DNA of 64,000 bases from the IMG/VR virus record IMGVR_UViG_3300035698_028676, positions 1,643-65,642 of that record. One strand, written 5' to 3'. Below are positions 5,577-58,623 of this stretch, in pieces; position 1 is the first letter of the stretch, and each line of letters starts with the position of its first letter. This stretch comes from a virus (lineage: Duplodnaviria; Caudoviricetes). The notes beneath the pieces are model-generated. The model was given only the letters and a program-made list of their open reading frames with translations, was not told the origin of the DNA and searched no databases. Made by a program: the position numbers and the translations under genes.

Positions 5577-6671
5577 ATGGTACCAAAAGATATTTTTTTA
5601 AGAGCGCCACTAAGAACTATGGCTGCAGTATTTTCTTGCTTTAGGAGTGCTCCTAGAGCCTATTCCTACCCATTGAGATTAGCCATCGAGAACGGTGTTG
5701 GGTGTAATCTTAACTGTAAAATGTGCGCATTAAGACACATGGATAGACCAAGAGGATTTATAACTTTCGAAAATTTTAAAAAGGTGTATGACCAGGTTAA
5801 ACCGCCTTATTTAAATCTTACTGGATATACTGACAGTTTTTTAAACAAAGATTTATTTAAGATGATTAAGTATGGGAAAGATAATGGCTCTTTTGTTAAG
5901 TTAGATACAAATGCTATGCTTATGACAGCTGATGTAGCTGAAGACTTATTGCTATCTGGTGCTGACGAGATATCTATTTCCATTGATGGCTCAACTCAAA
6001 AGATTTATGGAGATATACGTGTAGGTGGAAACCTTGAAACAGTGAAGAAGAATGTATCTGGGCTTGTAAAACTTCGGAATAGAATAGACTCCAAACTTAG
6101 AATAGATATAGCTGTTGTTGTTCAGAGGGACAATGTTAAAGATTTAGTTAATACTATTAAAATGATTGATGACCTTGGAGTAGATGAAATAAATCCTACT
6201 CCTATTGTTGAGTATGATATAAAAGAGCTTGAAGATTATTTATTAAAAGATATGATAATAGAACTTGATTGTGCTCTTAGTGAAATCAGGAAATCTACTG
6301 CAATTATAGCTGACCTTAACATCCAACCTCTATATCAATATATTGAAGATTATGAAAAAGGAGAATTAAAATATACTACATCAAAACATGTATGTTATAC
6401 TCCTTGGCATAACTGCTATGTTACATGGGAAGGTGATGTAGTTCCTTGTTGTTATTTTTATGATAAACAAATATGTTTTGGAAATGTATTTAGAGAGTCA
6501 TTTAAAGATATATGGAATAATGATAAATACCAAGAATTTAGAAAAAGTAAAGCAATATCTAGAGACTTACCTATATGTCAGACATGTAGAAATGATGAAG
6601 TGTTTCTTGAGAGCAAGTTTAAAAAGATTAGAAAAATTCCTTTAATTAAATCGATGAGTCATAGGAAATAA
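5577..6671 (+). CDS. Radical SAM protein with SPASM/Twitch domain
   Basis: CNLNCKMC; SIDG; CYTPW...GDVVPCC...C..C. Confidence 0.92.
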   Translation: MVPKDIFLRAPLRTMAAVFSCFRSAPRAYSYPLRLAIENGVGCNLNCKMCALRHMDRPRGFITFENFKKVYDQVKPPYLNLTGYTDSFLNKDLFKMIKYGKDNGSFVKLDTNAMLMTADVAEDLLLSGADEISISIDGSTQKIYGDIRVGGNLETVKKNVSGLVKLRNRIDSKLRIDIAVVVQRDNVKDLVNTIKMIDDLGVDEINPTPIVEYDIKELEDYLLKDMIIELDCALSEIRKSTAIIADLNIQPLYQYIEDYEKGELKYTTSKHVCYTPWHNCYVTWEGDVVPCCYFYDKQICFGNVFRESFKDIWNNDKYQEFRKSKAISRDLPICQTCRNDEVFLESKFKKIRKIPLIKSMSHRK

Positions 6672-6673
6672 AA

Positions 6674-6871
6674 ATGGATAGAAAAAAAGTTTTTGATATT
6701 ATTAGAATTATATTTGCTGTAGTATTTGTAGCAATTTGGGGCATAGTAATGTTTGATGCCAGAGATGGTGAAATGTTTATTTTGATTGGAGCGACATTTG
6801 GATGGATGTTATTATTATTTTATATAATAGATATTATATTACCAAGTAGTGAAAAGGAGGAAAAGAAATAA
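6674..6871 (+). CDS. Small two-TM protein
   Basis: Two hydrophobic helices, operon spacing. Confidence 0.65.
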   Translation: MDRKKVFDIIRIIFAVVFVAIWGIVMFDARDGEMFILIGATFGWMLLLFYIIDIILPSSEKEEKK

Positions 6872-6873
6872 AA

Positions 6874-7317
6874 ATGGAAAATAAAAATAAGTTTCAAATA
6901 GTAAGCAAAGTATATCAAGATAATTTCAAAAAAGTTATATTTGTTGTATTCAATTCAGAAACTGGAGAATTAATAAAGAAGACGATGCAGAACAAAGTAG
7001 AAGATGTATATAAAGGTAATGATATGAAAATAATATCTCAGACTGCAAAAGGTATTCAATCTGAAATAAAAGGATTACTTTATGAACATGTAGAATCTAT
7101 AGAAAATAAACTTTGGAATCAAGCTATAGCTGAAGCAGCTAATTGCTGCAATGGATATAACGAGGTAGAAGAAGAAAAAGCAGAATGTAAAACTGAAGAG
7201 CCAAAGAATAAAGCTCAGAATAATCAAGAAGTAAAATTAGATTTAAAGAATTTACTTGATGAAGCAATGAAGCAATTCCCTAATTTAGGGAAAGTTGGAA
7301 ATATTAAAATAAATTAA
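6874..7317 (+). CDS. Hypothetical protein
   Basis: 147-aa ORF with SD AGGAGG. Confidence 0.7.
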   Translation: MENKNKFQIVSKVYQDNFKKVIFVVFNSETGELIKKTMQNKVEDVYKGNDMKIISQTAKGIQSEIKGLLYEHVESIENKLWNQAIAEAANCCNGYNEVEEEKAECKTEEPKNKAQNNQEVKLDLKNLLDEAMKQFPNLGKVGNIKIN

Positions 7318-7328
7318 TATGATAACAA

Positions 7329-7402
7329 GATCCCATAGTCTAGCCCGGTTAAAACATCTCCCTTACACGGAGAAATCCTAGGTTCAAATCCTGGTGGGAT
7401 CA
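7329..7402 (+). tRNA. tRNA-Val (anticodon TAC), no intron, CCA not encoded
   Basis: Acceptor GATCCCA/TGGGATC; anticodon arm TCTCC-CTTACAC-GGAGA; T arm CTAGG-TTCAAAT-CCTGG. Confidence 0.92.
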
Positions 7403-7409
7403 TAACAAA

Positions 7410-7523
7410 ATGAAAACTAAGCAATGTAAAAAGTGCGGGGAGATGCACTTTAATTATCTCGACGCTATGGAGTGTTGTGATGGAGAGGAAAAAATAAAAA
7501 ATGAAGAAAAAATTAACAATTAA
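7410..7523 (+). CDS. Small Cys-rich peptide (37 aa, not in ORF track)
   Basis: MKTKQCKKCGEMHFNYLDAMECCDGEEKIKNEEKINN*. Confidence 0.45.
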   Translation: MKTKQCKKCGEMHFNYLDAMECCDGEEKIKNEEKINN

Positions 7524-7710
7524 ACATCTGACAATTAAACATCTGACGATGAAGCATCTAACAATGAAGCAGAAGATACTTAAGGCACTTGAAGAGCCAA
7601 GACCAAATGTAATATCTGGATTAGCTTCTGGTCTCTTTGCACTATCAATGACTCAGGCTGCCTTGACTATTCAGACTAATACTTTAAAAGAAGTTGGTAT
7701 TTTAAAATGA
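7501..7710 (+). CDS. Small protein with LT(I/M)KH tandem repeats
   Basis: Four 15-nt repeats at 7513-7572; ATGA overlap with radical SAM gene. Confidence 0.6.
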   Translation: MKKKLTIKHLTIKHLTMKHLTMKQKILKALEEPRPNVISGLASGLFALSMTQAALTIQTNTLKEVGILK

Positions 7711-8906
7711 ATAACATAATAAGTAAGCTATCTAAGAATCAATTGTTCGCAAACAAGCTAGAGGCAATGTATAACTGGATACCATATCATTTCGGAAATG
7801 GAAAAGCATTCAGCCCATTATCTGTAACGTTACTAGTATCATATAGATGCAACTTGAGATGTAAAATGTGTTTCTATTATAACGAGGTAGAGAAAGATAA
7901 GACATGTAAGTTAATAGAACAACGTTCCACTGAGGAGCTTACGCTCCCTCAAATAAAAGATTTAATTGACCAGTGCTCGCTGATGAAAGTTAAGGTATTC
8001 ACCATTCATGGAGGAGAGCCATTACTCTATCCACATATATTTGAGATTTCTAAGTATGCTAAAAGCAATGGAATGATAGTAAACTTTGTAACTAATGGTA
8101 CTCTTATTAATGAAACTATAGCTAACAAGATAGTTGATGCTGGTATTAATCATATAACATTCTCCCTTGACGGTCCGAGACCTATTCATGACGAAGTAAG
8201 GAGTGTACCTGGAACATTCGATAGAATTATTGCAGGAATAAAGATACTAAAAGACATGGAGACTAGTGGAAAAACTGTTCCTGGGATGTCAATTTCAACT
8301 TATGTATCAGCCATTAATCAAAAGAAACTAGCCCAGACATTAAGGGTAATAAACAAGACTGGTATCAAGGATTGGGGAGTTGGATTGATAACACATAACA
8401 GCGACAACTTAACTAACGATACAAAAAAGATATTTAATATGTCGGCAGGAGATGGTCATGGGGGTTTAGGGAATCTTAAAGATGAAGTGAAGAATATTAA
8501 TCTAGACATCTTAAACAATCAGAGAGAGGCATGTAAAATGATTAATAAAGGTGATGATTATGGATTGGATATAATCTTTCCGTCTAAAGATGCTATTAAA
8601 AACTATTATGACCCAACATGGAATGAAGTTCCTAATTGTACATGCCGGTGGTCAAGGACTGTTATCTCCCCTTATGGTGAGGTTTTCCCATGCGTCAATT
8701 TATCAATGATTAACCATATTGTTGGTAACATAAAAGAAGAAAAATTAAAGAAGATATGGAATGGAGAAAAGTATATCGACTTCCGTAAGAAGCTTAAAGA
8801 GTATGGGACGTTTCCTATATGTAGTAAATGTTGTCATATAAATAATAAGAGGAGTATCGCTTTTCAAAGCGATTCAACCTTTTCTTCGAAAAGGAGTCTA
8901 GAATGA
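7707..8906 (+). CDS. Radical SAM protein with SPASM/Twitch domain
   Basis: CNLRCKMC, GGEPLL, TNGTL, SLDG, GEVFPC...CSKCC. Confidence 0.93.
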   Translation: MNNIISKLSKNQLFANKLEAMYNWIPYHFGNGKAFSPLSVTLLVSYRCNLRCKMCFYYNEVEKDKTCKLIEQRSTEELTLPQIKDLIDQCSLMKVKVFTIHGGEPLLYPHIFEISKYAKSNGMIVNFVTNGTLINETIANKIVDAGINHITFSLDGPRPIHDEVRSVPGTFDRIIAGIKILKDMETSGKTVPGMSISTYVSAINQKKLAQTLRVINKTGIKDWGVGLITHNSDNLTNDTKKIFNMSAGDGHGGLGNLKDEVKNINLDILNNQREACKMINKGDDYGLDIIFPSKDAIKNYYDPTWNEVPNCTCRWSRTVISPYGEVFPCVNLSMINHIVGNIKEEKLKKIWNGEKYIDFRKKLKEYGTFPICSKCCHINNKRSIAFQSDSTFSSKRSLE

Positions 8907-9919
8907 AGAAAAAATGTTTGCAATGTAATATAGAATTTGAGGTTAGGCCATCAAATGTAAAAAGAGGTCATGGAAAATATTGCTCTGTAAAATGCTTAGC
9001 TAAAGCTAAAACCACAAAAATAAAAAAGAAATGCCCACAATGTGAAGTTGAATTTGAGGTTTACCCTTCAGATATAAAAAGAGGTAGAGGCAAATATTGT
9101 TCTAGGTCTTGCTCATCTAAAGCAAGAATTGTAATTATAAAAAAGATATGCCCTAATTGTAGGATTGAATTTGAAAGCCGTTTAGCAAAAAATAAAAAAT
9201 ATTGTTCTAAGATATGTGCAGACAATTTCTCCAATCGTTTAATAAAGAATATAACTAAACCTCAAGTAAAGGTAAATAGGAGTTGTTTAAACTGTGGGAT
9301 TGAATTCAAAGTCCAGCCTTCAAAAATTAAAAGAGGTGGTGGCAAATATTGTTCTAGGTCTTGCTCATCTAAAGCTCAGACTATAAGAATCAAAAAGAAA
9401 TGTATTCAGTGTGGAACCGAATTTGAAATTTGGCCATCTCATATTATAAGAGGTGGTGGGAAGTATTGCTCCAAAGAGTGCTCAGATGGATCTAGGAAAA
9501 CAAAAATAAAAAAGAAATGTATCCAATGCGGGATTAAATTTGAAACACATTTGTCAAGAAATAATAAATACTGTTCTACTAGATGTTCACATTTAGGAAA
9601 CTCTGGAGAAAATTGTAGCCTTTGGGTAGATGGTAAATCTTTTGCGCCATATTCTTTAAACTGGAATAATACTTTTAGAAAATATATTAGAAGAAGAGAT
9701 TCTTATCTTTGTGCTTTATGTCATCGTCATCAGGATGAATTTAATCGTTCACATTGTGTGCATCATATAGATGGCAATAAAATGAACACTACAAACGAAA
9801 ACTGTATATCACTTTGTAGTCGACATCATATGATTGTTGAAAAGTCTGGTAAAGCTCAATCTTTTTGGGGTCCTAGATTCAAAAAAATATTAACTAAAAT
9901 TCATGGATATAAATATTAA
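8903..9919 (+). CDS. HNH endonuclease with six CxxC...YCSxxC zinc-finger repeats
   Basis: Repeated CxxCxxEF...KYCSxxC; IRRRD..C..C, VHHIDGNKMN...NCISLC..HH. Confidence 0.88.
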   Translation: MKKKCLQCNIEFEVRPSNVKRGHGKYCSVKCLAKAKTTKIKKKCPQCEVEFEVYPSDIKRGRGKYCSRSCSSKARIVIIKKICPNCRIEFESRLAKNKKYCSKICADNFSNRLIKNITKPQVKVNRSCLNCGIEFKVQPSKIKRGGGKYCSRSCSSKAQTIRIKKKCIQCGTEFEIWPSHIIRGGGKYCSKECSDGSRKTKIKKKCIQCGIKFETHLSRNNKYCSTRCSHLGNSGENCSLWVDGKSFAPYSLNWNNTFRKYIRRRDSYLCALCHRHQDEFNRSHCVHHIDGNKMNTTNENCISLCSRHHMIVEKSGKAQSFWGPRFKKILTKIHGYKY

Positions 9920-9920: not shown

Positions 9921-10286
9921 ATGACTGAACAAATATCAATAGGTGATAAATGGAAAAGAAGAGTAGCTGTATTCAAATTTACTTTAGGTAGGGGATATAT
10001 ATTTCTTCAACTCCCAGCTTTAAGCTTAGTTGGAGCAGGAGTACTCGCACCTTATTTCCCAGGATTAGGACTATGGATATTAGCTATAGCAGCATTTGTA
10101 GCTTTTGTATTTGTAGGATGGTTAGATGTTAAGTTTAATATATTACAAGAAGAACAAAAGTATATGACTGAAAAGAACCCTATGTTAATGGAAGGATTGT
10201 TCGGAGAGAACAAAAAACTTCTTAAACAAATCAGTGCCCAGCAAATAATAGACGATTTAAACAATGAATTAATTAAGGATGAATAA
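9921..10286 (+). CDS. Two-TM membrane protein
   Basis: Hydrophobic hairpin; start set at MTEQ after upstream stop. Confidence 0.65.
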   Translation: MTEQISIGDKWKRRVAVFKFTLGRGYIFLQLPALSLVGAGVLAPYFPGLGLWILAIAAFVAFVFVGWLDVKFNILQEEQKYMTEKNPMLMEGLFGENKKLLKQISAQQIIDDLNNELIKDE

Positions 10287-10764
10287 TAAAAATAAAAAAT
10301 ATATACCAGAAAAAGAATTTATTAAGATATATGAAAGAGTTCCAAGGTTCTGTGTAGAGGTATTGGTTAAAACTAAGGATGGAATAATTATTACTAAAAG
10401 AGCTATAGAACCCATGAATGGGAGTTGGCATTTTGCAGGTGGGACAGTTCATCTTAAAGAATCAATAAAAGAGGCAGTTAGAAGAGTAGCTAAAGAAGAA
10501 TTGAATTTAGATGTTGAGATTATTAAGGGTGTTGGAGAGATGGAGTTCTTAAATAATTATAAAAAGAAAGGGAATAAACATATGGTATCAATAGCATATT
10601 TAGTTAAAGCAAAAGACATCAGTTCTATTAAATTAGATAGGCAGGCAAGTAGTTTCATGTTCTGTAAATACAAAAGCGATATACCAAAACATACAGTTAA
10701 GGAGCATACTGTTCTATTAAATAAAATACTAAAGGATAAGCCAGATGCATTGCCCATCATGTAA
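10279..10764 (+). CDS. Nudix hydrolase (GDP-mannose mannosyl hydrolase-like)
   Basis: WHFAGGTVHLKESIKEAVRRVAKEEL Nudix box; N-terminal EFIKIYERVPRFCVE. Confidence 0.85.
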   Translation: MNNKNKKYIPEKEFIKIYERVPRFCVEVLVKTKDGIIITKRAIEPMNGSWHFAGGTVHLKESIKEAVRRVAKEELNLDVEIIKGVGEMEFLNNYKKKGNKHMVSIAYLVKAKDISSIKLDRQASSFMFCKYKSDIPKHTVKEHTVLLNKILKDKPDALPIM

Positions 10765-10878: not shown

Positions 10879-11592
10879 ATGAATAAAATTAAAGTAAATA
10901 ACAAAGATATCCCAACTGGATACGGGTCTGATTATCATAAGAATAGACACCAACACTTATATACAAATTCAAAGTATTATAAAGTTAGGTCTGAAATTGC
11001 CAAACTAAGATATTTTAACAATATAGATGGTATAGAGAATAAAAAGATATTAGAATTTGGTGCAGGGCTTGGACAGAACCTATCAGCATTAGATACAAAG
11101 AAGAAGGTTGGATATGATATATCTGAATTTGCAGTTAAGTTTAGCCGAGAGAAGGGAGTATTATCTACAACAGACATCACTAGAATCCCTGATAACACCT
11201 TCGATATAGTATTCTCTGCTCATGTGCTAGAACATGTAGATAATCCATTGGAAACACTGCGTGTAATGCGTTCTAAGCTACGAAAAGATGGTAGGCTTAT
11301 ACTTATTACCCCACTAGATAGATGTAAAAAGATAAAAGATAAGAACAACGTCTTTCGTCCTGATGTAAATCAGCATTTGTGGACATGGACACCACAGCTT
11401 ATGACTAACCTTTTAGTTAAGGCAGGATTTAAACCGGTTAGTAGTAAAATAATTCATACATTTGCTTATAAGAAACTTTTATTATTTCGTAAGTTAGGGT
11501 TAAGAACTTATGACTGGGCTACTAGGTTTGCTGGAGTAATAGCTAGAGATAGAGAACTAAAATTTGAAGCGACTAAGGTAGAAAATGAATGA
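10879..11592 (+). CDS. Class I SAM-dependent methyltransferase
   Basis: ILEFGAGLG, FDIVFSAHVLEHV, LILITP. Confidence 0.9.
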   Translation: MNKIKVNNKDIPTGYGSDYHKNRHQHLYTNSKYYKVRSEIAKLRYFNNIDGIENKKILEFGAGLGQNLSALDTKKKVGYDISEFAVKFSREKGVLSTTDITRIPDNTFDIVFSAHVLEHVDNPLETLRVMRSKLRKDGRLILITPLDRCKKIKDKNNVFRPDVNQHLWTWTPQLMTNLLVKAGFKPVSSKIIHTFAYKKLLLFRKLGLRTYDWATRFAGVIARDRELKFEATKVENE

Positions 11593-12120: not shown

Positions 12121-12236
12121 CAGAAGAAGAATTATATACTAGTGAAGATATATTAAAAATGATAGATGAAGCCCCAGATATAGATCGAGTTGGAGAATAT
12201 TTAAGAGATAGACTTACTCAGGGGAAAGCATGGTAA
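12117..12236 (+). CDS. Small acidic protein (39 aa, not in ORF track)
   Basis: MTEEELYTSEDILKMIDEAPDIDRVGEYLRDRLTQGKAW*; fills operon gap. Confidence 0.5.
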   Translation: MTEEELYTSEDILKMIDEAPDIDRVGEYLRDRLTQGKAW

Positions 12237-13132: not shown

Positions 13133-13293
13133 GAAGAGAGAAATTAGGCATACTTGATATGGTATTTTTTACTATACTATTTATACCATTTCTATTAATT
13201 GACCTATTTCATATCGCTAATGAAACTACTGAATATGAGAGGATGGGACGAAATCGCCCATCCGTCGATACCGAAAGGAGAAGTGAACAATGA
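13129..13293 (+). CDS. Small membrane protein
   Basis: One TM helix; start set at MRREK (ATGA overlap). Confidence 0.5.
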   Translation: MRREKLGILDMVFFTILFIPFLLIDLFHIANETTEYERMGRNRPSVDTERRSEQ

Positions 13294-24303: not shown

Positions 24304-24307
24304 TAAT

Positions 24308-47927: not shown

Positions 47928-47934
47928 ATTCCTG

Positions 47935-49331: not shown

Positions 49332-49358
49332 TTTATTTTTATTAATGTAATAAATGCT

Positions 49359-49391: not shown

Positions 49392-49407
49392 GCTTTATTG
49401 TTGGTTT

Positions 49408-49623: not shown

Positions 49624-49631
49624 TTTTTATT

Positions 49632-49874
49632 TTACCTCCTTTCTCCAAAGTGCATTATCTTTGATAATTTTCCATTGGATTTACTTTTTATAGTCCAATG
49701 GTGGTCGGATTTTGTCCGGCCCGACTTTGTCGTGACGGCTCTGCCGACTCCATTGGATTTAATCTCCTCAGTTTTAACCTTTAAGCTTACCTTTTTAATC
49801 CCTCTCCAATCTGTCCATTCTTTCGTAGCAAAACATAACGCCCTCTGTTTGCTTTTATATTTTGAACAAGGCAT
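49632..49874 (-). CDS. Small basic protein
   Basis: SD GGAGGG sets start at MPCSKYKSKQRALCFAT. Confidence 0.6.
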   Translation of the reverse strand: MPCSKYKSKQRALCFATKEWTDWRGIKKVSLKVKTEEIKSNGVGRAVTTKSGRTKSDHHWTIKSKSNGKLSKIMHFGERR

Positions 49875-49973
49875 TTTAAATATCCCTCCTAAAAAATCCA
49901 AAGCACGAGCCCGTAGGCCCGCACTTTTTCCTCTGGACAAGTGGCTGAGGACCACTAAGAATAGAGTGTAATA

Positions 49974-52900
49974 TCATATCCATTTTACCCTACCAACTTT
50001 TTTTGTTTGTGACTTTCTTTTCTTAATACCTTTAGCTGTGATAGCAGCGAACTCTCCCTTTGTAGATATTCTAGCTTTTCTTTTCTGGATGAATGTTGAT
50101 GGCTTTTTGACTTCTTTACCTTTTACTATTCTGCCCCTGTATTCTTTCTTAAGTTCAGCTCTAGATATTGGGGCCAGATTTAGTGTACCTTCAATTCCTT
50201 TCCCCTTCTTTAATCTAAATGAAACTGATGCATCGGATTTTGTTTCTTTTCTACCTAAAGCTAAAGCTTCCCCTTCTGATAATGCGAATGGAGTTACATC
50301 TTCCCACTTCCCTCCTCTTTTAACTTCAACTTCATAACCTCGTTTAACTTTGGTCTTTGATTTAGTTTTGGGGATTCTAACTTTTACTTTCCCTAAATCA
50401 GGTATAATTATAACTGGAGGTACTGGTTTTGGTGGAGATGGCGACGGGCTTGGCGATGGTGAAGGCGAAGGACTAGGGCTAGGACTAGGACTTGGGCTTG
50501 GACTTGGACTAGGTGATGGACTAGGAGAAGGACTAGGACTAGGAGAAGGACTAGTAGTTATGCTAGGACTAGGTGAAGGACTAGGTGAAGGACTAGGTGA
50601 AGGTGAAGGACTAGGGCTTGGACTAGTAGTTATACTAGGACTAGGCGAAGGGCTAGGAGAAGGTCTAGGTCTAGGGGAAGGAGAAGGTGATGGCTTAAAC
50701 TTAATTACAGGAGAAGGACTAGATACTGAAGATATTTTAATTAGTGAAGAAGGACTAGCCGCAGTTGAAGGCCTAGTGCTAGGAGAGCTTAAAGTAGATG
50801 TAGTAATTTTCGCCTCTGAAGGAATAGTTATTGGACTAACAACACGTCCAGTAAATGAAGTTTTTACAGGAGTCTTCAATGAGCTAGTAACATCAATTTT
50901 TATTCCAGATAAATATGCAGCCCTACTAGTATCAAGTTCTCCAAACAATGTCCCTACATCTTCCGCAGCCCAATCTAATTTTCTATATTTTTCAAATAAT
51001 TTATCTGCCCTTACCCCTTCAGCCTTAGTCCCAACTGTAGGATTAAAAACTTTGCTTTCTGCTAAACTTTTACCTATGGCGTAAGTATCAACAACATCTT
51101 TAGAACGATGCATAGGTGGCTCTATTATCTTCTTTCCAGTTAAAGGATCTTCCCACCAAGTGGCAGAAGCTCCAGCCTTTCTTATTAACTGTTCATATTC
51201 TGTTTGAGAAGCAACTCCTTCAACCTTTGTAGTAGGTCTATATTCCTCAAATCCATATCTGAAACCTTTAGATAATTCTACTAAAGAAGTAGGATCATCA
51301 TGATATTTTAATTCTATGCTCTTCTCTCCTTTAACATAAACTCCCATACCTTGTGCATCATCTATTACTTCAGCAGTACTAGAACCTTTCCTTCTTAATT
51401 CCTCTGCAGCCTTTTCTCCCCATTTCCCAGCAGCAGTCTTAGAATTAAATTCTATTTCAATATCTCCAGGGGTTCTTTTAAACTCTAATTTTCTTTGAGC
51501 AATATCTGAGAAAGAACCATAAACTCTTTCATATGCTCCTTTATCTTTTTTCAAAAGTTTAAGTACAACCTTAATTTCATCTTTATCTAATGATTTAGTC
51601 TCTGTAGGAAACTTTTCTAAAAAACTACTTTTCTGCTCTCTTAGTAAATTTAATACATCTTTAGTTATTTCTATCTTTTTTATACCTTGAGTACTGACCC
51701 CTAAAGCCTTTAGCACAGGTTTTTGAGTTAATACTTCTGCTTCTAATGCAGTCCCTGGATAACTAGCAATATTTTTCTTAGACCATTCTGGGAATGCCAT
51801 TCTTTTTACACCTGGTAATTTTTCTACTCCTGGAGTTCCAATTGCAACCCCTCTTTTAGTCCATCCTATTAAAGGTTTTACTACCCCCTCTTCTGGCTCA
51901 AGATAAAACCCCCTATAAAGAGATTCAGGTTCGGTAAATCTCGCAGCCTCAATCATTTCTACATCTTTTACCGCTTTAATAGTTTTTGGGAGTAAAGGAG
52001 ACTCTGTACGAATAATTGCCTTTTTATCTGTAAGAATTTGTTGATAATCCCTGACCCTTATGCCATCTACTTCTTTTATAACATCTAATCTTTGTCCTCT
52101 GTATCCTATATCAACAACATCTGTTTTAGTGGCTGTATCGACAATTTTAACCTGTCTACCAGTATTATCTATTTTTAAAACATTAGGATCTTTACCCTCG
52201 GCCTTATAGTTCTTTCTAGCTATTCTTAAAGCTTTCTTCGCAAACTCCCCAACTTTTTCTTTTACTAAAAAATAAACATCGGCATCACCAGGATTTCTAA
52301 AACTTCCTTTTGGAAGTTGCATTTTGACTGCCGCAGTACCTCCTAAATATCCTCCTTCCTTAGTAGCTGCCTTCGCCACATCTAATTGTAATTTATTTAA
52401 TGTATCTAATGCCCTTGGCACTTTAACCTCAACATTACCATACTTCAAAAACTTTCCTGCTCCAGAGGCACCAACCCCCATAAGAACAAAATCTTTTGCG
52501 GCAGCTCCAGTCATTTTTCCCGCTTGAAAATAATCTTCTGCATCTCTTACATTTTTATATGTCTCTGCTCCATAAGTAACACCAAATCCTACTCCTGCTC
52601 CTAAAGTTCCAACATCTGCAGCAACACCTGCAACTTGAGCACCTTTTGTTCCAGCAACGAGCCCACCTACTGTTCTAAATCCAAGACCTGCAGCCTTTAC
52701 TCCAACCCCTAACCCATAACCTGCACCAATAAGAGCGACTTGTTTTAATGGTTTTTCTATAACATCCTCTGCAATCCCTATACCAACTCCAGTTATAAAA
52801 CCACCACCTTTAGCGACTACCTCAGGAACTCCTTTGTCAAGAAACGACGCTGTTGTCTCTTCAGATTTTATGGCTGCTTCCTCAAATGTAGTTGGTAAAT

Positions 52901-55460
52901 CTAGGCCTGTTTGTGTTTCCACTACAGTCATACCAGTTCCAAATCCCTTTGCAAATGGATCTGTTATCCCTCCCCTAAGCCCTTCGCTTATATCACCAAA
53001 AAAGCCTGGTATCTCTTTTGCTGTTTTAACTATCTTATCAGCTGCAACTGCAGGTCCAAGATAAGCTGCTTCAGTATAAGGTTTAGCTGCATCTTGAATC
53101 CTTTCATTTGCTAAAAGTGGGGCTAATGCCGTATCTATTACAATAGGAGCTACTGTTTCTTTTATTACTGGAGCTACGACTTCAGTTATCTTATCAGCTG
53201 CAACTGTAGTCCCAAGATAAGCTGCTTCGACATAAGGTTTAACTGCATCTTTAATTATACTTCCAGTTAACATAGAGCCCAAAGCTGTTTCTTTTATCAA
53301 TGGGGTTACGACTTCAGCTATCTTATCGGCTGCAATTGAAGGTCCAAAAAAAGCTGCTTCAGTATAAGGTTTAGCTGCATCTTTAATTACACTTCCAGTT
53401 AACATAGAACCTAAAGCTGTCTCTTCTATTACTGGAGCTACTACTTTACTTATCTTATCAGCTGCAACTGAAGGTCCAAGATATGCTGCTTCAACATAGG
53501 GTTTAGCTGCATCTTTAATTACTCTCCCAGTTAACATAGAACCTAAAGCTGTCTCTTTTATAGCTGAAGCTGTTACTTCAGTTATCTTATCAGCTGCAAG
53601 TGAAGGCCCAATGAAAGCTGTTTCAGTATAAGGTTTAGCTGAATCTTTAATTATTTTTGCAACTGAAAGTGAACTAATAGCCGTTCCTTTTATAGCTGGG
53701 ACTATTGTTTCCTTAATAACTACTCCAGCTTCTTTAATTAATGGAACCGCTTTCTCTTCAACCCTTTTTCCTAACGATAATATAGATGTTGCTTTTTTTT
53801 CTACTGCACCTGCTACTGTTGTTCCAATATAATCTAAAGCATCTGCTCTAGCTTCTCCAACACCTGCTGTAAATTCTTTGACTGATGGGATTACCTTTTC
53901 TTTAATAACTACTCCAGTTCCTTTGATTACTGGAGCTACTTTTTCCTTAACATCTTTTCCTAAAGATAAAACAGATGTTGCTTTTTCTTCAACTGCATCT
54001 ACTACTGTAGTCCCAATGTAGCTCAATGTATCTGATCTAACTTTTCCAAACTCTTTGATTACTGGAATTACCTTTTCTTTAATAACCGGAGCTACAACTT
54101 CAGTTATTTTATCAGCCACAATTGAAGGTCCAAGATATGCTGTTCTAGTATAAGGATTAGCTGCTTCCCTGACTGCACTTGCAGTAGAAATAGATCCTAT
54201 AGCGGTATCTCTTATAACTGGAGCTACTATTTTCGCAACTCTTCCACCCAAAGATATACTTTCTGCCGTATCCGCAACTTTTGTTCCAATATAGTCTAGG
54301 GTATCTGCCCTTGCTTCTCTTATTGCTGGAATTATCTTTTCCTTATTAACCCATGTCTCTGCGGCTACAACTGACAAAGCACCAGTAGCTGCACCTAATC
54401 CTGCACCTAATGTTTCACCACTACCTTTTAAAACATCTTTAATAACCTTTGCCCCTATTTCATTATACGCCTGTGGATTATAAAGTTTCCTATTTGTAAA
54501 TGGAGTATAGACATCTCTTCCAGTTCCTGGAGTTGGTCTTCCTCCTTCGAACATCTCTCCATAAGTTTCTCTTGGTGTATTTCCGGTAAGCCTCTCCCAT
54601 TGAGCAGCAGGAAAATTTGTTATCTTTTGTATTATAGTTTTTTTAGGAGCAGCTTCAACTGACCATTGTGGGGCAGAAGGTAAAGGTGTTTTTTTAAATA
54701 ATTCTGGATGAGATAATGCAAAGGCCGCCTGTCTATCTTGTGACATCTCTATTCCCTGTCTACCTACTGCTACAGGAATCTGAGTAGCCGTAGCAAGATC
54801 TGGAGAAGCTAAAGATTGCAATTCACCAGTAAGAACATCTTTATATGCAACCTGTGGCGCATCAAATTGTTGTCCATATCTTTCTTGTAAGCCCTCTAGA
54901 GACATGCTCGCCTGATCTGGCCCACCTGAAACACCAACAAGTTGTCCTTTATCATAAATAAGATTAAACCCAGCCTCATTTAAATTTGATTTAAATTCGG
55001 ACAAATCGCCCCGAGCCAACTTCTGTTCTGTTCTCATTTGAGAATCTCTTGGCGACCAATCTGTTGTTGTTCCATATGGTGTAGAATATTCGTAGCCTAA
55101 TACTTGCGTTACGTAGCCCTTCCCTAACTTTCCCATAATCGCCCTTGGAGCTATCCCTTTCTCTTTGGCATATTGCATTATCCCGGCAGGAGTTTTTTTA
55201 AATTCTTCAATTCTTTGTCCATAAGAAGCAACTTGTTCTTCATCTTGCGCTGCTTGTTGTGATTGTCCTGCTAACCTTTCTCTTTCAGACCTAACTGCCT
55301 GTTTCTTGGGAACTCCAGCTATTCCCTTTATAGCCCTAAGTGCCCTTTGTGTTCTTGTCTCAGGCAAAGCCGCCTGTCTAGATGCTATACCAGATTGAGC
55401 TCTAGCTATACCTTCTCTACTAGCTGCTACTTGAGCTTGTGCTTCCTGAATACTAACCAT
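49974..55460 (-). CDS. 1828-aa multidomain protein: amphipathic repeats, hydrophobic helices, two nucleotidyltransferase-like domains, (SP)n linker, basic tail
   Basis: GPSxAADKI repeats; YLGGTAA...RNPGDAD and VYGSFS...RTPGDIE motifs; long Ser-Pro run. Confidence 0.8.
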   Translation of the reverse strand: MVSIQEAQAQVAASREGIARAQSGIASRQAALPETRTQRALRAIKGIAGVPKKQAVRSERERLAGQSQQAAQDEEQVASYGQRIEEFKKTPAGIMQYAKEKGIAPRAIMGKLGKGYVTQVLGYEYSTPYGTTTDWSPRDSQMRTEQKLARGDLSEFKSNLNEAGFNLIYDKGQLVGVSGGPDQASMSLEGLQERYGQQFDAPQVAYKDVLTGELQSLASPDLATATQIPVAVGRQGIEMSQDRQAAFALSHPELFKKTPLPSAPQWSVEAAPKKTIIQKITNFPAAQWERLTGNTPRETYGEMFEGGRPTPGTGRDVYTPFTNRKLYNPQAYNEIGAKVIKDVLKGSGETLGAGLGAATGALSVVAAETWVNKEKIIPAIREARADTLDYIGTKVADTAESISLGGRVAKIVAPVIRDTAIGSISTASAVREAANPYTRTAYLGPSIVADKITEVVAPVIKEKVIPVIKEFGKVRSDTLSYIGTTVVDAVEEKATSVLSLGKDVKEKVAPVIKGTGVVIKEKVIPSVKEFTAGVGEARADALDYIGTTVAGAVEKKATSILSLGKRVEEKAVPLIKEAGVVIKETIVPAIKGTAISSLSVAKIIKDSAKPYTETAFIGPSLAADKITEVTASAIKETALGSMLTGRVIKDAAKPYVEAAYLGPSVAADKISKVVAPVIEETALGSMLTGSVIKDAAKPYTEAAFFGPSIAADKIAEVVTPLIKETALGSMLTGSIIKDAVKPYVEAAYLGTTVAADKITEVVAPVIKETVAPIVIDTALAPLLANERIQDAAKPYTEAAYLGPAVAADKIVKTAKEIPGFFGDISEGLRGGITDPFAKGFGTGMTVVETQTGLDLPTTFEEAAIKSEETTASFLDKGVPEVVAKGGGFITGVGIGIAEDVIEKPLKQVALIGAGYGLGVGVKAAGLGFRTVGGLVAGTKGAQVAGVAADVGTLGAGVGFGVTYGAETYKNVRDAEDYFQAGKMTGAAAKDFVLMGVGASGAGKFLKYGNVEVKVPRALDTLNKLQLDVAKAATKEGGYLGGTAAVKMQLPKGSFRNPGDADVYFLVKEKVGEFAKKALRIARKNYKAEGKDPNVLKIDNTGRQVKIVDTATKTDVVDIGYRGQRLDVIKEVDGIRVRDYQQILTDKKAIIRTESPLLPKTIKAVKDVEMIEAARFTEPESLYRGFYLEPEEGVVKPLIGWTKRGVAIGTPGVEKLPGVKRMAFPEWSKKNIASYPGTALEAEVLTQKPVLKALGVSTQGIKKIEITKDVLNLLREQKSSFLEKFPTETKSLDKDEIKVVLKLLKKDKGAYERVYGSFSDIAQRKLEFKRTPGDIEIEFNSKTAAGKWGEKAAEELRRKGSSTAEVIDDAQGMGVYVKGEKSIELKYHDDPTSLVELSKGFRYGFEEYRPTTKVEGVASQTEYEQLIRKAGASATWWEDPLTGKKIIEPPMHRSKDVVDTYAIGKSLAESKVFNPTVGTKAEGVRADKLFEKYRKLDWAAEDVGTLFGELDTSRAAYLSGIKIDVTSSLKTPVKTSFTGRVVSPITIPSEAKITTSTLSSPSTRPSTAASPSSLIKISSVSSPSPVIKFKPSPSPSPRPRPSPSPSPSPSITTSPSPSPSPSPSPSPSPSPSPSITTSPSPSPSPSPSPSPSPSPSPSPSPSPSPSPSPSPSPSPSPPKPVPPVIIIPDLGKVKVRIPKTKSKTKVKRGYEVEVKRGGKWEDVTPFALSEGEALALGRKETKSDASVSFRLKKGKGIEGTLNLAPISRAELKKEYRGRIVKGKEVKKPSTFIQKRKARISTKGEFAAITAKGIKKRKSQTKKVGRVKWI
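50430..50700 (-). repeat. Ser-Pro dipeptide repeat tract
   Basis: PSPSPS... with varied codons, interrupted twice by ITT. Confidence 0.9.
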
Positions 55461-55479
55461 ACTAATTTGATAAAGTTAT

Positions 55480-55860
55480 CTAGTAACTTATTATCCCCCT
55501 TCTTACTTTTCTACGCATTTGTACATTTGGCGTTAGATTAATTTTAGGTGCAACTGGTGCTACTTTTACTGATACTGTACTAAATGTAATTCCATCTTTA
55601 ACTATTGGCTCTTGTGGAATACTATTATATGTATTCAAATCATCAAGATATTTATTGATAGTTGTAAGATTCTTTTTTGCCATAACTCCACCTTTCCTTA
55701 CATCTTTCATATAGCTTCTATCTTCTTGTCTAGCAACTCTATTCTGCATTCCCCCATGTAATTGTGCTTTAGAGTATTTAAGTGGATGGTCTAATTGTGC
55801 AAAATAATTTCTCCTTTCAATTATTTGTAATTTCAAGTTTTCTGCTTGTGTTTTATCCAT
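55480..55860 (-). CDS. Basic hypothetical protein
   Basis: SD GGAGGT; TAATG coupling. Confidence 0.7.
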   Translation of the reverse strand: MDKTQAENLKLQIIERRNYFAQLDHPLKYSKAQLHGGMQNRVARQEDRSYMKDVRKGGVMAKKNLTTINKYLDDLNTYNSIPQEPIVKDGITFSTVSVKVAPVAPKINLTPNVQMRRKVRRGIISY

Positions 55861-56030
55861 TATATTTTACCTCCATTGTATTTGTTTTTAAATATAATAT
55901 CTTTCCCTATGTCGTCTATACTAAAAGTATCTTTTCCTGGAGTGTCCCTAGGAGCAACATCTGTTATTTTAAATTTTATACTAACTACGTTTTTATCATA
56001 TAAATTATTCCTATTGATATATTTCTTCAT
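55860..56030 (-). CDS. 56-aa protein paralogous to 47682-47927 (not in ORF track)
   Basis: MKKYINRNNLYDKNVVSIKFKITDVAPRDTPGKDTFSIDDIGKDIIFKNKYNGGKI*. Confidence 0.7.
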   Translation of the reverse strand: MKKYINRNNLYDKNVVSIKFKITDVAPRDTPGKDTFSIDDIGKDIIFKNKYNGGKI

Positions 56031-56037
56031 ATTACTA

Positions 56038-56077
56038 ATATTACTAGTAATTCTTTATATTTAAATGTTGCGTTAAT
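56038..56077 (-). promoter_or_regulatory. Class B promoter copy 3
   Basis: Identical 40-bp core. Confidence 0.85.
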
Positions 56078-56219
56078 TGTGCTAGCACAATTATCCACTG
56101 CTGAAAAGCAGCTGTTAATCGAGTTAACTCGATTAGCCATTACGTAAACGTAACTGTTAATCGTGTAAACATAATTAGTAATTATAAATAAACAACTATT
56201 AATCATTAGTCTCCCGACC
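56074..56219. repeat. Array of 20-bp palindromic units with exact 42-bp period
   Basis: Units start at 56074, 56116, 56158 and (degenerate) 56200. Confidence 0.75.
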
Positions 56220-56242
56220 AGTCATAAAAAATAAAAAAATAT

Positions 56243-56267
56243 AAAAGGTGGGTTAATCCCACCCCTT
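56243..56267 (-). terminator. Terminator-like hairpin after S-layer gene
   Basis: GGTGGG-ATTAA-CCCACC followed by T-tracts on minus strand. Confidence 0.6.
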
Positions 56268-56294
56268 ATATAATAAGAAATCGTTTCTGTTTAT

Positions 56295-58475
56295 CTAAAT
56301 AATAACCTTCTCGCCATCAGCGATATTGATATTATTACTTAATAGATATTGGATACCTCTTGTAGTATCTTCTGCGTTATAACCTGCAACTACTGTTGCA
56401 AATTGACCCTCACCCATATCGAATGTCTGAATCAATACTTTCCCGGCTACAACTCCTGTAATCGCTGTGAATTCTGCTCCACATGCTTTACCGCCTAGTA
56501 AGCTAGCTGATACTGTATTAATACAACTTCCTCCGACAACAATGATATTCTTACCTGAAGCTGCTGCTAAATTAGCATCAGTTATCTTCGCGATACCTAA
56601 CTCTGCAGCTGTTGGTTTAACAACGGTTGCGTTGGACGCAACTGTATCTTCCTCACTACCTAGTACTGAAACCTGGGCGTATAATTGTTCACTAGGAACT
56701 TTGAATACAACCTTATCGTCATCAGCATTATTCTGTGGGCTCTCTACAATAGTACCATAATAATCCATTACATCATTATCATATTTTCCAATAGATTTAC
56801 CATCAACTTTCACATCACTAGATGCTGCATCCTCTTCTATAGTCCCAAGATATGTATTATTGCCTCCTAGAGAAATTTCAATATTACTATTTTTATAACT
56901 CCCTGTTATAGATAATGTATCTCCACCTGCGGAAATTCCAATTACCATTTCAGTTTCATCTGCAATTAAATCTGCAATATCAATGTAAGAGTTTTTTACA
57001 GTCACCAATGCGGCTTCTGCTGCTGTTACATCTGCTTCTGCTGTCACTACTGCTGCTTGTGTAATAGAATTATTCGTCACAAGTACTGTGGCCTCCGCAT
57101 TTGTTAATGCAAGTTCTGCTGCTGTTACATTTGCTTCTGCTGTTGTTACTGCTGATATATCAATATTCGCGTATCGTACCGGCTTTCCAGTAGAATAATC
57201 TTCCGCTAAATCCATATAATAAACTTGTAAAAGTCCGTTACCAGAATTCTGCAGATATAATGTATCTGTCTCTATATCATCTTTTAGTAAAAAAGAATCT
57301 TCGTTATTACCCTTAATAACCATAACATCTACATCACTAATTCTTGCTCCATTTCCGCTAGAACTTCCATTCTCATACATATCAATATTATCGAAGTAAA
57401 CTTCGTAATCATGATAATCTACATCAGTTAAGCTATCAAAACTCACTGTTGCAAAATCGTTTGGGAAAATGTATTCTCCTCCTTCATAAACAACATCATC
57501 TTCTTCGTCAACTTGTCTTAAGTCATACCTAACACCAATCCATCCATCTTCACTTCCAGGATTAGATATACTCCAAACCCACTCTGGGTCATCGTTATCT
57601 TGTCCTATAAATGCATCTCCATCGGAATATTCCTCAGAAATATCTCCTCCAGCATAGATTTCAACTTTGCTAGTTCTAGTATCAGAATCTGTATAGTAAA
57701 CGTCGTCTACTTTAACCTCTACTCCATTAATAGTCTTTTTCTTACCTTCTTTGATAAGAACTCCATTAATAAATGCACTGTCATCATAAATACTATCTAT
57801 TGTTAATGAAACTCCATTAACTGTAGTAGTAGCCCCTTCTGCAAGAAAAATCTTTTCTGCGTTAGTTACTGTAATAGAATTACTATCTATATCTTCAATA
57901 AGATATTCATCTCCAAGAATTGATACCTCTAAAGACTCTGCATCTGTATCACCTAGTTCTCTAACATTTTTAACAAAGACATCTTCCTCAAATATAAGCT
58001 TATATTCTAGGCCTTTATCATTTGTCAAAACTACATCTTCAAAATCGTTATTGTCTAAAGTAGTCTGAATTTTAAGATCACCGATTGCAAGCTCTTCATG
58101 AACATTATAGCTATCTGTGTTGTCTCCATCGTTCCACTCTATTTTACCATCAAATAAAGAAGGAATTTTGTTATCAGTTAACGTAGATTTAATCTTCCCA
58201 CTCAAACCTAATCCAAGCTCTGCTTCATCCTCAGTGACTCCTGCAGAAAAAATCCTTTCAAGTTCTTCTGGGATAATAATTGTATCTGCCAAACTATTTA
58301 CTAAACTATCCGCTGCTGTAGAATCTGTCGCTGCTGCGCTAACACCATAGACAACTGCTACATTAGCTTCATTGTTATTAGTAAATGGAATTGGATATAC
58401 TCCTGCTGAAACTAACATCATACTTATTAAAAATAGACTAAGAAATCCTGTCGTCTTTTTAAATGTTTTTTTCAT
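56295..58475 (-). CDS. Archaeal S-layer protein
   Basis: Signal peptide, YPIPF..VAVVYG..A..D..AA N-domain, very acidic, C-terminal NIIVVGGSCIN...VVAGYNAEDT. Confidence 0.85.
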   Translation of the reverse strand: MKKTFKKTTGFLSLFLISMMLVSAGVYPIPFTNNNEANVAVVYGVSAAATDSTAADSLVNSLADTIIIPEELERIFSAGVTEDEAELGLGLSGKIKSTLTDNKIPSLFDGKIEWNDGDNTDSYNVHEELAIGDLKIQTTLDNNDFEDVVLTNDKGLEYKLIFEEDVFVKNVRELGDTDAESLEVSILGDEYLIEDIDSNSITVTNAEKIFLAEGATTTVNGVSLTIDSIYDDSAFINGVLIKEGKKKTINGVEVKVDDVYYTDSDTRTSKVEIYAGGDISEEYSDGDAFIGQDNDDPEWVWSISNPGSEDGWIGVRYDLRQVDEEDDVVYEGGEYIFPNDFATVSFDSLTDVDYHDYEVYFDNIDMYENGSSSGNGARISDVDVMVIKGNNEDSFLLKDDIETDTLYLQNSGNGLLQVYYMDLAEDYSTGKPVRYANIDISAVTTAEANVTAAELALTNAEATVLVTNNSITQAAVVTAEADVTAAEAALVTVKNSYIDIADLIADETEMVIGISAGGDTLSITGSYKNSNIEISLGGNNTYLGTIEEDAASSDVKVDGKSIGKYDNDVMDYYGTIVESPQNNADDDKVVFKVPSEQLYAQVSVLGSEEDTVASNATVVKPTAAELGIAKITDANLAAASGKNIIVVGGSCINTVSASLLGGKACGAEFTAITGVVAGKVLIQTFDMGEGQFATVVAGYNAEDTTRGIQYLLSNNINIADGEKVII

Positions 58476-58589
58476 TTTATTTTAAACCCCCTTTCATTAT
58501 TATAATTTTTAAATTTAATACCATTATATATATTTTACATACTATACCCTACAGAGTATTTTATGCGTGATTATATCAGACAACTTTCC

Positions 58590-58623
58590 TTTATAAATCT
58601 TTCGGTACTACTACATAGTACTA
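58590..58623 (-). promoter_or_regulatory. Class A promoter copy 10 (drives S-layer gene)
   Basis: Minus strand TAGTAC-TAT-GTAGTA-GTACCGAAAGA-TTTATAAA. Confidence 0.85.

Follow-up and report, generated by a model that had tools for sequence, protein, structure and literature searches.

The DNA analysed here, which we call the window, is a stretch of 64,000 nucleotides that comprises bases 1643-65642 of a single 65,642-bp contig, IMG/VR record IMGVR_UViG_3300035698_028676; coordinates are window positions unless stated. IMG/VR classes the contig as linear, its CheckV completeness is 35%, and the GC content of the window is 29-38%. The genes fall into two convergent blocks, one on the plus strand up to about 34 kb and one on the minus strand from 34.9 kb (Table 1). 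The plus-strand block contains a glycosylation cluster (5577-30026) whose last gene encodes a homologue of the archaeal oligosaccharyltransferase AglB/STT3, and the minus-strand block (34856-63986) contains a capsid-like gene, several proteins rich in N-x-S/T glycosylation sequons, and a gene of an S-layer family. The original prediction, made from the letters of the sequence, was that these genes form a surface-remodelling kit that belongs to an element rather than to a cell. Our analysis suggests that the contig comes from a large spindle-type virus of tiny DPANN archaea with an AglB, a sugar pathway and a copy of the host's S-layer protein, genes that are normally expected of the host and not of its viruses.

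Table 1. Genes and signals of the window (aa, amino acids; ORF, open reading frame; SAM, S-adenosylmethionine; GT, glycosyltransferase; TM, transmembrane)
Feature	Position	Strand	Evidence
Tyrosine recombinase/integrase, 214 aa	3666-4310	+	Pfam Phage_integrase, E = 3e-25; PHROG integrase families
Radical SAM/SPASM enzymes (two)	5577-6671, 7707-8906	+	Pfam Radical_SAM and SPASM; small ORFs and tRNA between them
tRNA-Val (TAC)	7329-7402	+	ARAGORN; sole translation-related feature; internal to the element
NUDIX	10279-10764	+	Pfam
SAM methyltransferase	10879-11592	+	Pfam
NodZ-like candidate fucosyltransferase (weak)	12230-13132	+	NodZ, E = 1.1e-3, 18.2 bits (cut-off 28.3)
GT4 glycosyltransferase	13290-14486	+	Pfam
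GT-C (PMT_2), 618 aa	16618-18474	+	Pfam PMT_2, E = 3.3e-10; at least 9 hydrophobic segments
SAM methyltransferase	from 18778	+	Pfam
PfkB kinase and cytidylyltransferase	from 20686	+	Pfam
SAM methyltransferase	from 21974	+	Pfam
NAD epimerase/dehydratase (two)	from 22700; from 25938	+	Pfam
FkbM methyltransferase	from 23515	+	Pfam
GT2	from 24660	+	Pfam
Cupin	from 25582	+	Pfam
AglB/STT3, 906 aa, last gene of the glycosylation cluster	27306-30026	+	Pfam, motifs
Long-form VP1-type capsid protein, 176 aa	34856-35386	-	phrog_5402 'virion structural protein', E = 4e-5; 10 sequons (2.9 expected)
Four consecutive basic-protein ORFs, with a 68-aa ORF between the third and fourth	35461-37686	-	Translations; repeat D10
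Membrane-anchored LamG/ConA-like lectin protein, 1720 aa	37750-42912	-	Laminin_G_3, E = 3.1e-22; homologue in G409
Conserved structural sub-block	42902-47716	-	Synteny in L084, L088, L093, G406, G408, G409
P0121, 1828 aa, repeat-rich	49974-55460	-	PS-rich linker, basic tail, 0 sequons
S-layer-family protein P0122, 726 aa	56295-58475	-	Homologues; N-terminal hydrophobic segment consistent with a signal peptide
189-aa basic protein, C-terminal TM anchor (lineage core)	58968-59537	-	Homologues in relatives
157-aa acidic/helical protein (lineage core)	59537-60010	-	81-90% identical in close relatives
82-aa three-TM protein; 217-aa glycoprotein (7 sequons); 130-aa Cys-rich secreted protein; 547-aa Gly_rich_2 protein	within 60120-63986	-	Pfam, PHROG, hydropathy, sequons
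318-aa sequon-repeat protein, 30 sequons, about 14 nt from the contig end	within 60120-63986	-	Sequon count
Class A promoter	564-587, 1872-1895, 4371-4394, 14336-14359, 16165-16188, 22652-22675, 30772-30795, 48053-48076	+	Motif scan
Class A promoter, aglB unit	26844-26867	+	Motif scan
Class A promoter, 115 nt ahead of the S-layer gene	58590-58613	-	Motif scan
AATGAAAGGGGGT, just upstream of the long capsid gene, the S-layer gene and the 157-aa gene	35396-35408, 58486-58498, 60021-60033	-

The predicted AglB matches the STT3 N-terminal family of Pfam over residues 88-313 (E = 3.6e-6) and the STT3/PglB core over residues 617-661 (E = 1.6e-4). A simple hydropathy scan found 14 hydrophobic segments, and a multi-span N-terminal membrane domain is followed by a soluble C-terminal domain. 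The enzyme had been described as intact-looking, and we tested it for degeneracy. Its acidic loops read D66-L-D68-P-W and E188-K-E190, the latter aligned to D-N-E of yeast STT3, so that the second acidic motif is E-x-E and not D-x-D/E. T377-V-A-E380 is a motif of the TIXE/SVSE type, placed from sequence alone, and W620-W-D-Y-G aligns with the yeast WWDYG. None of these residues (D66, D68, E188, E190, T377, E380 and WWDYG) varies among the 117 aligned family members, and the description therefore stands. The DK motif that had also been noticed is present in part: D681-I-G-K684 is kept in 19 of the 19 members of the window's clade, but the last position of the consensus D-x-x-K-x-x-x-M/I is Y rather than M or I. 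The names and consensus forms of the acidic-loop, TIXE/SVSE and DK motifs are those of the oligosaccharyltransferase literature. By its motifs the enzyme appears catalytically intact, and transfer of a glycan to the Asn of N-x-S/T is its predicted activity. Heterologous AglB complementation has been reported (PMC5131992).

Relatives of this AglB are common in cells. Hundreds of full-length copies with 45-52% identity are found in metagenome-assembled genomes (MAGs) of Pacearchaeota, Woesearchaeota and Nanoarchaeota, on contigs of up to 764 kb, and a relative is encoded in 590 of 600 matched stretches of species genomes, with a best identity of 52%. The clade of the window AglB is absent from the species-representative genomes matched in those 600 stretches. 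In a tree of 117 sequences (FastTree with a midpoint root, as for the S-layer tree below), the window AglB and 18 metagenome sequences form a clade with a support of 100 and a stem of 0.38, which is nested among Pacearchaeota and Woesearchaeota AglBs and contains none of the 76 MAG sequences. Scans of viral contigs with a single AglB or P0122 query found almost nothing; alignments were needed as queries.

Pfam confirmed the GT-C, GT2, GT4 and nucleotide-sugar enzymes of the original prediction. The fucosyltransferase-like call fared less well: there is a match to NodZ, but it lies under the family cut-off (Table 1), and the ORF has a homologue of 32% identity in a related virus record, G406. 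The genes from 18778 to 26846 make up a nucleotide-sugar and glycan-tailoring block, and their closest relatives adjoin AglB in Pacearchaeota and Woesearchaeota MAGs (58% identity for the GT2 and 54% for the epimerase). None of the ORFs at 5577-30026 has a match in G408 or G409, two further relatives of the window. The pair of radical SAM/SPASM enzymes at the start of the cluster could be sulfatase-maturase-like or peptide-modifying rather than sugar enzymes; tiny ORFs adjoin their genes, one of which (7501-7710) has a repeated K-H-L-T motif.

We looked for likely substrates by comparing the number of N-x-S/T sequons in each protein with 500 shuffles of its residues. Six proteins, of 176, 1720, 178, 1052, 217 and 318 aa, contained more sequons than any of their 500 shuffles; the 1720-aa protein, for example, has 78 where 37.0 are expected (z = 8.0). 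Sequon density is 2.35 per 100 aa in the proteins that have a hydrophobic segment at the N-terminus and 0.90 in the others. The claim that secreted proteins are packed with sequons holds for the six enriched proteins but not for the S-layer-like protein, to which we return below. The 176-aa protein is the long capsid form, and the 1720-aa LamG protein is a candidate adhesin or end-fibre. The conserved structural sub-block at 42902-47716 encodes a 178-aa glycoprotein (9 sequons), multi-TM proteins of 89 and 140 aa, a 1052-aa glycoprotein (40 sequons) and a 130-aa protein; the term glycoprotein, as applied to the 178-, 1052- and 217-aa proteins, is a prediction from their sequons.

The S-layer-family protein, P0122, has no Pfam match of its own at E<=0.01, and the S-layer assignment, which we uphold, comes from its relatives. 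PF05124 is carried by 12 of 23 P0122 homologues, a 13-sequence profile of P0122 matches 342 of 401 genomes of the phylum Nanoarchaeota, and MAG orthologues score S_layer_C. Six unpublished genomes (G327, G249, G365, G401, G248 and G338) count in this tally and nowhere else in the analysis. Because of these matches we place P0122 in the ordinary cellular S-layer family of the phylum. Its gene lies exactly between the gene for the 189-aa protein and the P0121-like gene, two genes that adjoin each other in G409. A tree of 82 S-layer proteins puts all seven copies from contigs with virus core genes into a clade of 33 (support 96; most of the other 26 are on short contigs of unknown context), which excludes all six MAG copies, and the sister group holds the three closest MAGs. 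No match to P0122, or to the 189-, 157- and 176-aa proteins, was found by tblastn among deposited phage and archaeal-virus genomes. The S-layer homologue may be a component of the particle, or it may replace the lattice of the host.

The original observation of one promoter shared by several glycosylation units, the aglB unit and the S-layer gene was confirmed. The class A promoter, TAGTRRYAYCRRAAGRYTTATAWA, occurs at 10 sites with at most 2 mismatches, compared with 0.01 expected, and none of 100 shuffles reached 10. The 24-nt signal consists of an inverted repeat, ACTACT..GTAGTA, followed by CCGRAAG and then TTTATAAA, and it is also seen in the repeat families D11/D17 and I1/I3/I4. Its density per 100 kb is 15 in the window contig, 7 in close relatives, 0 in G406, G408 and G409, and 0.08 in 1.3 Mb of MAG loci, and in three close relatives it precedes the S-layer gene as well. 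This density and distribution indicate a control signal specific to the lineage and common to the kit, the S-layer gene and the left-end mobile genes. The genes of the kit are present, intact, conserved, co-regulated as judged by a sequence signal, and linked to virus genes. A ribosome-binding-like motif, AATGAAAGGGGGT, was found at 3 sites (0.10 expected). Two further observations concern upstream signals. A membrane protein and a Band 7/SPFH protein form a pair (612-1803) downstream of a class A promoter. A 106-nt element, probably a second class of promoter, is present in three copies (37638-37743, 47882-47987 and 55985-56090), one ahead of a 343-aa gene, one ahead of an 81-aa gene and one ahead of the P0121 unit's upstream region.

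The product of the capsid-like gene at 34856-35386 has two hydrophobic helices, which include L-V-P-G-F-F, and the loop is about 100 aa longer than in the short forms of the family and holds 10 sequons. Aligned by hhalign, the long form matches a profile of short major capsid proteins at 93.5% (E = 2.3e-7), and the short capsid-like profile matches the virion structural protein of Sulfolobales Mexican fusellovirus 1 (SMF1) at 97.4% (E = 1.4e-11, 65 of 66 columns). Two small ORFs of G406 are matched from end to end by PHROG 5402 ('virion structural protein', E = 1.5e-6), and by tblastn they are 38% identical over 81 aa to the VP1-like virion protein of SMF1. The short capsid genes form tandem triplets in the 117.8-kb and 64.9-kb relatives of the window, and by synteny they should lie just past the window's right end. 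An N-x-T sequon in the exposed loop between the helices is kept in all 11 short capsid proteins of the relatives. Capsid glycosylation may be general in the group; if so, the small relatives would depend on the oligosaccharyltransferase of the host, and the lineage of the window would bring its own.

Other structural hallmarks were sought in PHROG and Pfam scans of all ORFs, with no match to a terminase, portal, tail or double-jelly-roll capsid protein; results of the pooled searches are those among the top 25 families, and weak matches may be hidden. P-loop proteins of 257-288 aa in the relatives have a weak similarity to the DnaA-like ATPase of SMF1 (25% over 73 aa, pairwise E = 0.004; E = 0.074), and phmmer with the SMF1 protein gave no match in the window or its relatives. 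A match to phrog_289 was rejected as an ATPase, since it is a small SLOG/DprA-like ORF (contig positions 945-1313) at the left end of the contig.

On their own, the homology of AglB and the flanking sugar genes would fit a chromosomal agl locus. Four results argue otherwise and lead us to regard the window as an element and not a chromosome: its gene content, a conserved core that is not cellular, the viral hallmark just described, and the existence of complete relatives. The absence of housekeeping genes from the region, part of the original prediction, was borne out: searches of 57 window ORFs, taken singly, against Pfam and of 90 ORFs of the 65.6-kb contig against PHROGs gave no informational housekeeping gene. 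As a control, we examined 103 ORFs in 105 kb around the S-layer gene of the three Nanoarchaeota MAGs with the closest cellular copies. These loci hold Rpb1/Rpb2, ribosomal proteins S7, S12 and S19e, an EF-Tu-type GTPase, PCNA, MCM, SepF and prefoldin, among others, and they share only the S-layer gene with the window. Informational genes were likewise not seen in G406 (86.6 kb) or in those flanks of the relatives L084, L087 and L088 that were viewed.

The block from 43.7 to 61 kb is syntenic in metagenome relatives of 117,826, 64,935, 84,219 and 17,715 bp. The gene for the 157-aa core protein and the capsid profile are each found in only 1 of the 401 Nanoarchaeota-phylum genomes, on the same 24-kb contig. 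This 24.3-kb contig (G286:C3) is binned in a MAG of about 0.5 Mb and has two capsid-like genes, an adjoining gene for a 288-aa P-loop protein, and weak homologues of the 157- and 1052-aa proteins; it is possibly a provirus or a co-binned virus contig, and a possible link to the host. The capsid family was found on ten IMG/VR contigs, five of which were searched; CheckV rates four of these five as 100% complete, and the same four have direct repeats at their termini. One of these, G409, is a 46,400-bp genome whose 127-nt direct terminal repeat we verified. Nine window ORFs, those at 32622, 34856, 37750, 43747, 44153, 47324, 49974, 58968 and 59537, have homologues in G409, and eight of the nine are near-collinear in one block that contains the capsid genes and the genes for the 157-aa, 189-aa, P0121-like, 130-aa, giant LamG, 1052-aa, 140-aa and long capsid proteins. 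G406, an IMG/VR relative of 86,566 bp, has 13 window ORFs in common. It also encodes an MCM with an OB domain, three HNH proteins, two MT-A70 and one C5 DNA methylase, ParB-N, a resolvase, DUF5131, NifU, LemA, a DisA-type cyclase domain, GDP-mannose dehydratase, DegT and a GT2, and it has no AglB.

As far as sequence can tell, then, the contig is not ordinary chromosome: it has no informational genes, it has a viral hallmark, and a relative with terminal repeats is collinear with it. Comparison of AglB and the S-layer protein with the MAG copies agrees, in that both belong to separate clades without MAG members. The proposal that the element owns the kit is further supported by the MAG control, the capsid homologue, the collinearity with G409 and the lineage-specific promoter.

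We take the window to cover roughly a third to a half of the genome of a large archaeal virus, or of an element derived from a virus, with a particle that would be built from hydrophobic capsid proteins of the fusellovirus type. Compared with the complete relatives (26.7-46.4 kb), its lineage gained a glycosylation cluster of about 25 kb and, within the structural module, a full-length S-layer gene. The separate clades of AglB and the S-layer protein, nested among Pacearchaeota and Woesearchaeota versions, suggest that both genes are old captures from host-like cells that were then inherited in the virus lineage. The host is most likely a Pacearchaeota- or Woesearchaeota-like DPANN archaeon of salt lakes, to judge by where the captured genes have their nearest cellular relatives, by a low GC content and by the one 24-kb contig binned with Nanoarchaeota.

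From these genes we infer that the element makes a glycan of its own and which proteins receive it. In the mechanism we propose, the kit would be expressed during infection from the virus's own class of promoter. The virus would make nucleotide sugars and would build and tailor a lipid-linked glycan of its own specification, and the viral AglB would move this glycan onto the sequon-dense virion proteins, namely the long capsid form, the LamG adhesin and the 1052-, 178-, 217- and 318-aa proteins. Glycosylation of the virion would then be independent of the glycan and the oligosaccharyltransferase of a host with a reduced genome. The S-layer homologue would be produced together with the structural genes and would coat or accompany the particle or replace the host lattice. 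We put the probability of this reading as a whole, in which a virus or virus-derived element uses an added kit on its virion proteins, at roughly 65%. A broader proposal is that a large (possibly >100 kb) spindle-type lineage took over the whole terminal branch of host envelope biogenesis, which would clothe the particle (or the infected cell) in glycoproteins of viral specification; such a coat would be independent of the host's and would perhaps mimic or replace it. This is more tentative, and we hold its chances to be slightly below even.

Several observations weigh against the reading of a virus that glycosylates its own virion. Concerning the viral nature of the contig, the short capsid genes are absent from it and only the derived long form is there; the capsid similarity lies largely within the hydrophobic helices, though three methods agree on it; and on a contig rated 35% complete we found no AAA+ ATPase (no ORF with a Walker A motif), replication gene or other hallmark. 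There is no direct or inverted terminal repeat of 10-200 nt at the contig ends, so that both ends are open and integration in a chromosome is possible. Concerning the kit, AglB and the S-layer homologue are absent from G409 and from the other four capsid-bearing records searched, and since the nearest complete relatives have neither, the two genes must be accessory. No flippase or clear initiating transferase was recognised in the cluster, and the pathway may not be self-sufficient, with some steps possibly the host's. The S-layer-like protein is not enriched in sequons (5 observed, 7.6 expected). Finally, the link between the virus genes and the AglB and S-layer genes depends on the continuity of contigs in short-read metagenome assemblies. 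The joint presence of AglB and the S-layer gene on contigs of other assemblies (77,686, 117,826 and 84,219 bp) led us to reject an assembly chimera; this co-occurrence was taken from equal lengths in the two sets of matches and not read directly. The 117.8-kb relative also carries three capsid genes and core genes.

A second explanation is that the main job of the kit and the S-layer homologue is to re-coat the host, altering the surface of the infected cell and not the virion. By analogy with seroconverting phages, which like the glycosylation machinery of chloroviruses are virus-encoded surface-glycan systems, such a change might block superinfection, ease budding through the lattice, or alter the attachment of DPANN cells to their partners. 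The S-layer homologue keeps the full architecture of the cellular protein, is preceded by the same promoter as the kit, and belongs to a long-lived separate clade, all of which would suit a role on the cell; with its few sequons, it is also no obvious substrate of AglB. For partial viruses of the Candidate Phyla Radiation (CPR) and DPANN, the available text of PMC11310336 proposes cell-surface modification genes that aid adhesion. On the other hand, the sequon-dense proteins are in the structural module and include a form of the capsid protein, and the S-layer gene stands among virion-module genes and has the AATGAAAGGGGGT motif in common with the capsid-like gene. We consider re-coating less likely than not as the main function, and both roles may hold.

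The window might instead be a variable genomic island, with or without a provirus, of a DPANN lineage that has not been binned, in which case the aglB and S-layer genes would be the cell's only copies. Virus-prediction pipelines may mistake DPANN DNA for viral DNA, both protein families are near-universal in the phylum (590 of 600 stretches and 342 of 401 genomes), the AglB of MAGs has glycosylation genes of similar kinds beside it, and the contig carries an integrase and a tRNA and is open at both ends. Other results speak against an island: informational genes are missing here, in G406 and in the viewed flanks of L084, L087 and L088 and abound in the MAG control loci; beyond the S-layer gene, the window has nothing in common with the three MAGs whose cellular copies of that gene are nearest; the AglB clade is in no species-representative genome, where the best identity is 52%; the class A promoter spans the kit, the mobile genes and the capsid module; and the structural block is collinear with a virus genome that has terminal repeats. 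A more specific version, a provirus bounded by the tRNA-Val, was rejected, as class A promoters and virus-related genes flank the tRNA on both sides; no duplicate of the tRNA that might serve as an attachment site was found among repeats of at least 28 nt. We regard the island as improbable.

Equally little probability attaches to a non-viral extrachromosomal element, such as a plasmid, mini-chromosome or satellite, that has spindle-virus structural genes and forms no infectious particles itself: the contig shows no packaging or AAA+ ATPase or replication gene, the related G406 has MCM, resolvase, ParB-N and DNA methylases, and plasmid-derived satellites with spindle-virus capsid and ATPase genes are described from haloarchaea and nanohaloarchaea, but in the accessible text those satellites measure 2.7-9.0 kb (bioRxiv 10.1101/2025.02.15.638363), compared with >65 kb and a large structural set here, the predicted structural glycoproteins are collinear with complete virus genomes, and on an incomplete contig missing genes mean little.

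Some further features of the contig were noted. P0121 may be an internal or tape-measure-like virion protein. It contains 1.3% Asn at a higher GC content (38%), with 132-nt tandem repeats, a glycine-rich hydrophobic stretch and a long P-S repeat linker; no relative over its whole length was found among 8000 scored candidates or in viral contigs, and only its ends are conserved in relatives. The ORFs at 35461-37686 share a calcium-binding-like motif, D-x-D-x-D-G-V-K-N-x-F-D-C-K-P, have no signal peptides, and have homologues in G406 and G408. AlphaFold2 models of the 189- and 157-aa proteins, built from 8-row alignments, had mean pLDDT values of 55.0 and 56.4, too low for fold searches, and the ESM Atlas gave no usable match for the 157-aa protein. 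The load of homing-type nucleases is dense: three zinc-ribbon/HNH endonuclease paralogues on the plus strand (8903-9919, 30044-30745 and 48126-49133), one of which contains nine 45-nt tandem repeats (48222-48794), a free-standing LAGLIDADG endonuclease (2178-2876, plus strand) and a small HNH protein (contig positions 1318-1551). Seven salt-lake metagenome runs contain 37-93% of the words of 54001-64000, and no RNA run is among those that share them. Logan contigs over 44001-64000 are pieces of 0.6-4 kb at a depth of about 2-9, which neither bridge nor informatively extend the contig end.

Among known systems, the window lineage is closest in its structural genes to spindle-shaped viruses, that is, Fuselloviridae such as SMF1 and viruses of Nanohaloarchaeota. 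Both have tandem genes of the small two-helix hydrophobic capsid family with a very large end-fibre-like protein after them, a tyrosine integrase, complete relatives with terminal repeats, and a sequon in the capsid loop; the capsid proteins of fuselloviruses are reportedly glycosylated. They differ in size, >65 kb for a contig 35% complete against 14.8 kb for SMF1, and unlike those viruses the window contig has a sequon-rich long capsid form, AglB, a cluster of about 25 kb and an S-layer homologue, while no AAA+ ATPase was found. The signature of the Nanohaloarchaeota viruses is a hydrophobic capsid protein plus an AAA+ ATPase, and the accessible text that describes it contains neither 'oligosaccharyl' nor 'S-layer' (bioRxiv 10.1101/2025.02.15.638363). 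A viral AglB, a glycosylation cluster, an S-layer homologue or a sequon-rich long capsid form was likewise not found in the portions of the literature searched.

With the cellular agl clusters of Pacearchaeota and Woesearchaeota MAGs, the window shares the AglB family (45-52% over the full length), its motifs, and neighbouring GT2, GT4, epimerase and HldE-like genes. Unlike theirs, its AglB lies on a contig that has virus structural genes and no housekeeping genes, and in a long-stemmed clade without MAGs, and its promoter is nearly absent from MAG loci. The CPR and DPANN viruses of PMC11310336 and PMC12647753 have glycosyltransferases and nucleotide-sugar genes and thus share the glycan-building part, and PMC11310336 also reports lectin-like LamG/concanavalin proteins; roles in surface modification or attachment are proposed in the parts of these papers available. 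To these, the window adds the oligosaccharyltransferase step and an S-layer homologue: in the accessible text, 'oligosaccharyl' does not occur in either paper, 'STT3' does not occur in PMC11310336, and 'S-layer' is used only for a host protein.

One deposited virus genome does match the window AglB. The Nitrosopumilaceae spindle-shaped virus NBC1 (BK067786.1) has, as its ORF25 (6771-8561), an STT3/AglB homologue of 597 aa that contains WWDYG and a matching transmembrane region (33% identity over 142 aa, E = 3e-16). It is shorter than the window AglB and annotated only as 'ORF25', and the deposited virus collection that contains NBC1 gave no S-layer homologue by tblastn. The words oligosaccharyl, STT3 and AglB do not occur in the accessible text of PMC10866085 on Nitrosopumilaceae viruses. 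More generally, we found no virus-encoded AglB in the literature, where hits for archaeal AglB and viruses were all on the host side; supplementary tables may list such genes.

The glycoproteins of archaeal viruses are thought to be made by the AglB pathway of the host. If the broader proposal is true, the window would contain the first viral N-oligosaccharyltransferase system, and the STT3 of NBC1 would suggest that the trait recurs among archaeal viruses. The combination of control MAG loci, for the density of housekeeping genes, with a capsid hallmark reached through relatives could be used elsewhere to tell DPANN viruses from mis-called pieces of chromosome. The system would also offer natural AglB variants paired with sequon-rich candidate substrates, and a way to study how viruses of genome-reduced DPANN archaea cope with the limited biosynthesis of their hosts. 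Were a virus to bring its own oligosaccharyltransferase, along with a glycan pathway and an S-layer homologue, the final, protein-modifying step of N-glycosylation would prove to be one that viruses can encode, which bears on the control of virus recognition by surface glycans and on the attachment of DPANN archaea to their hosts.

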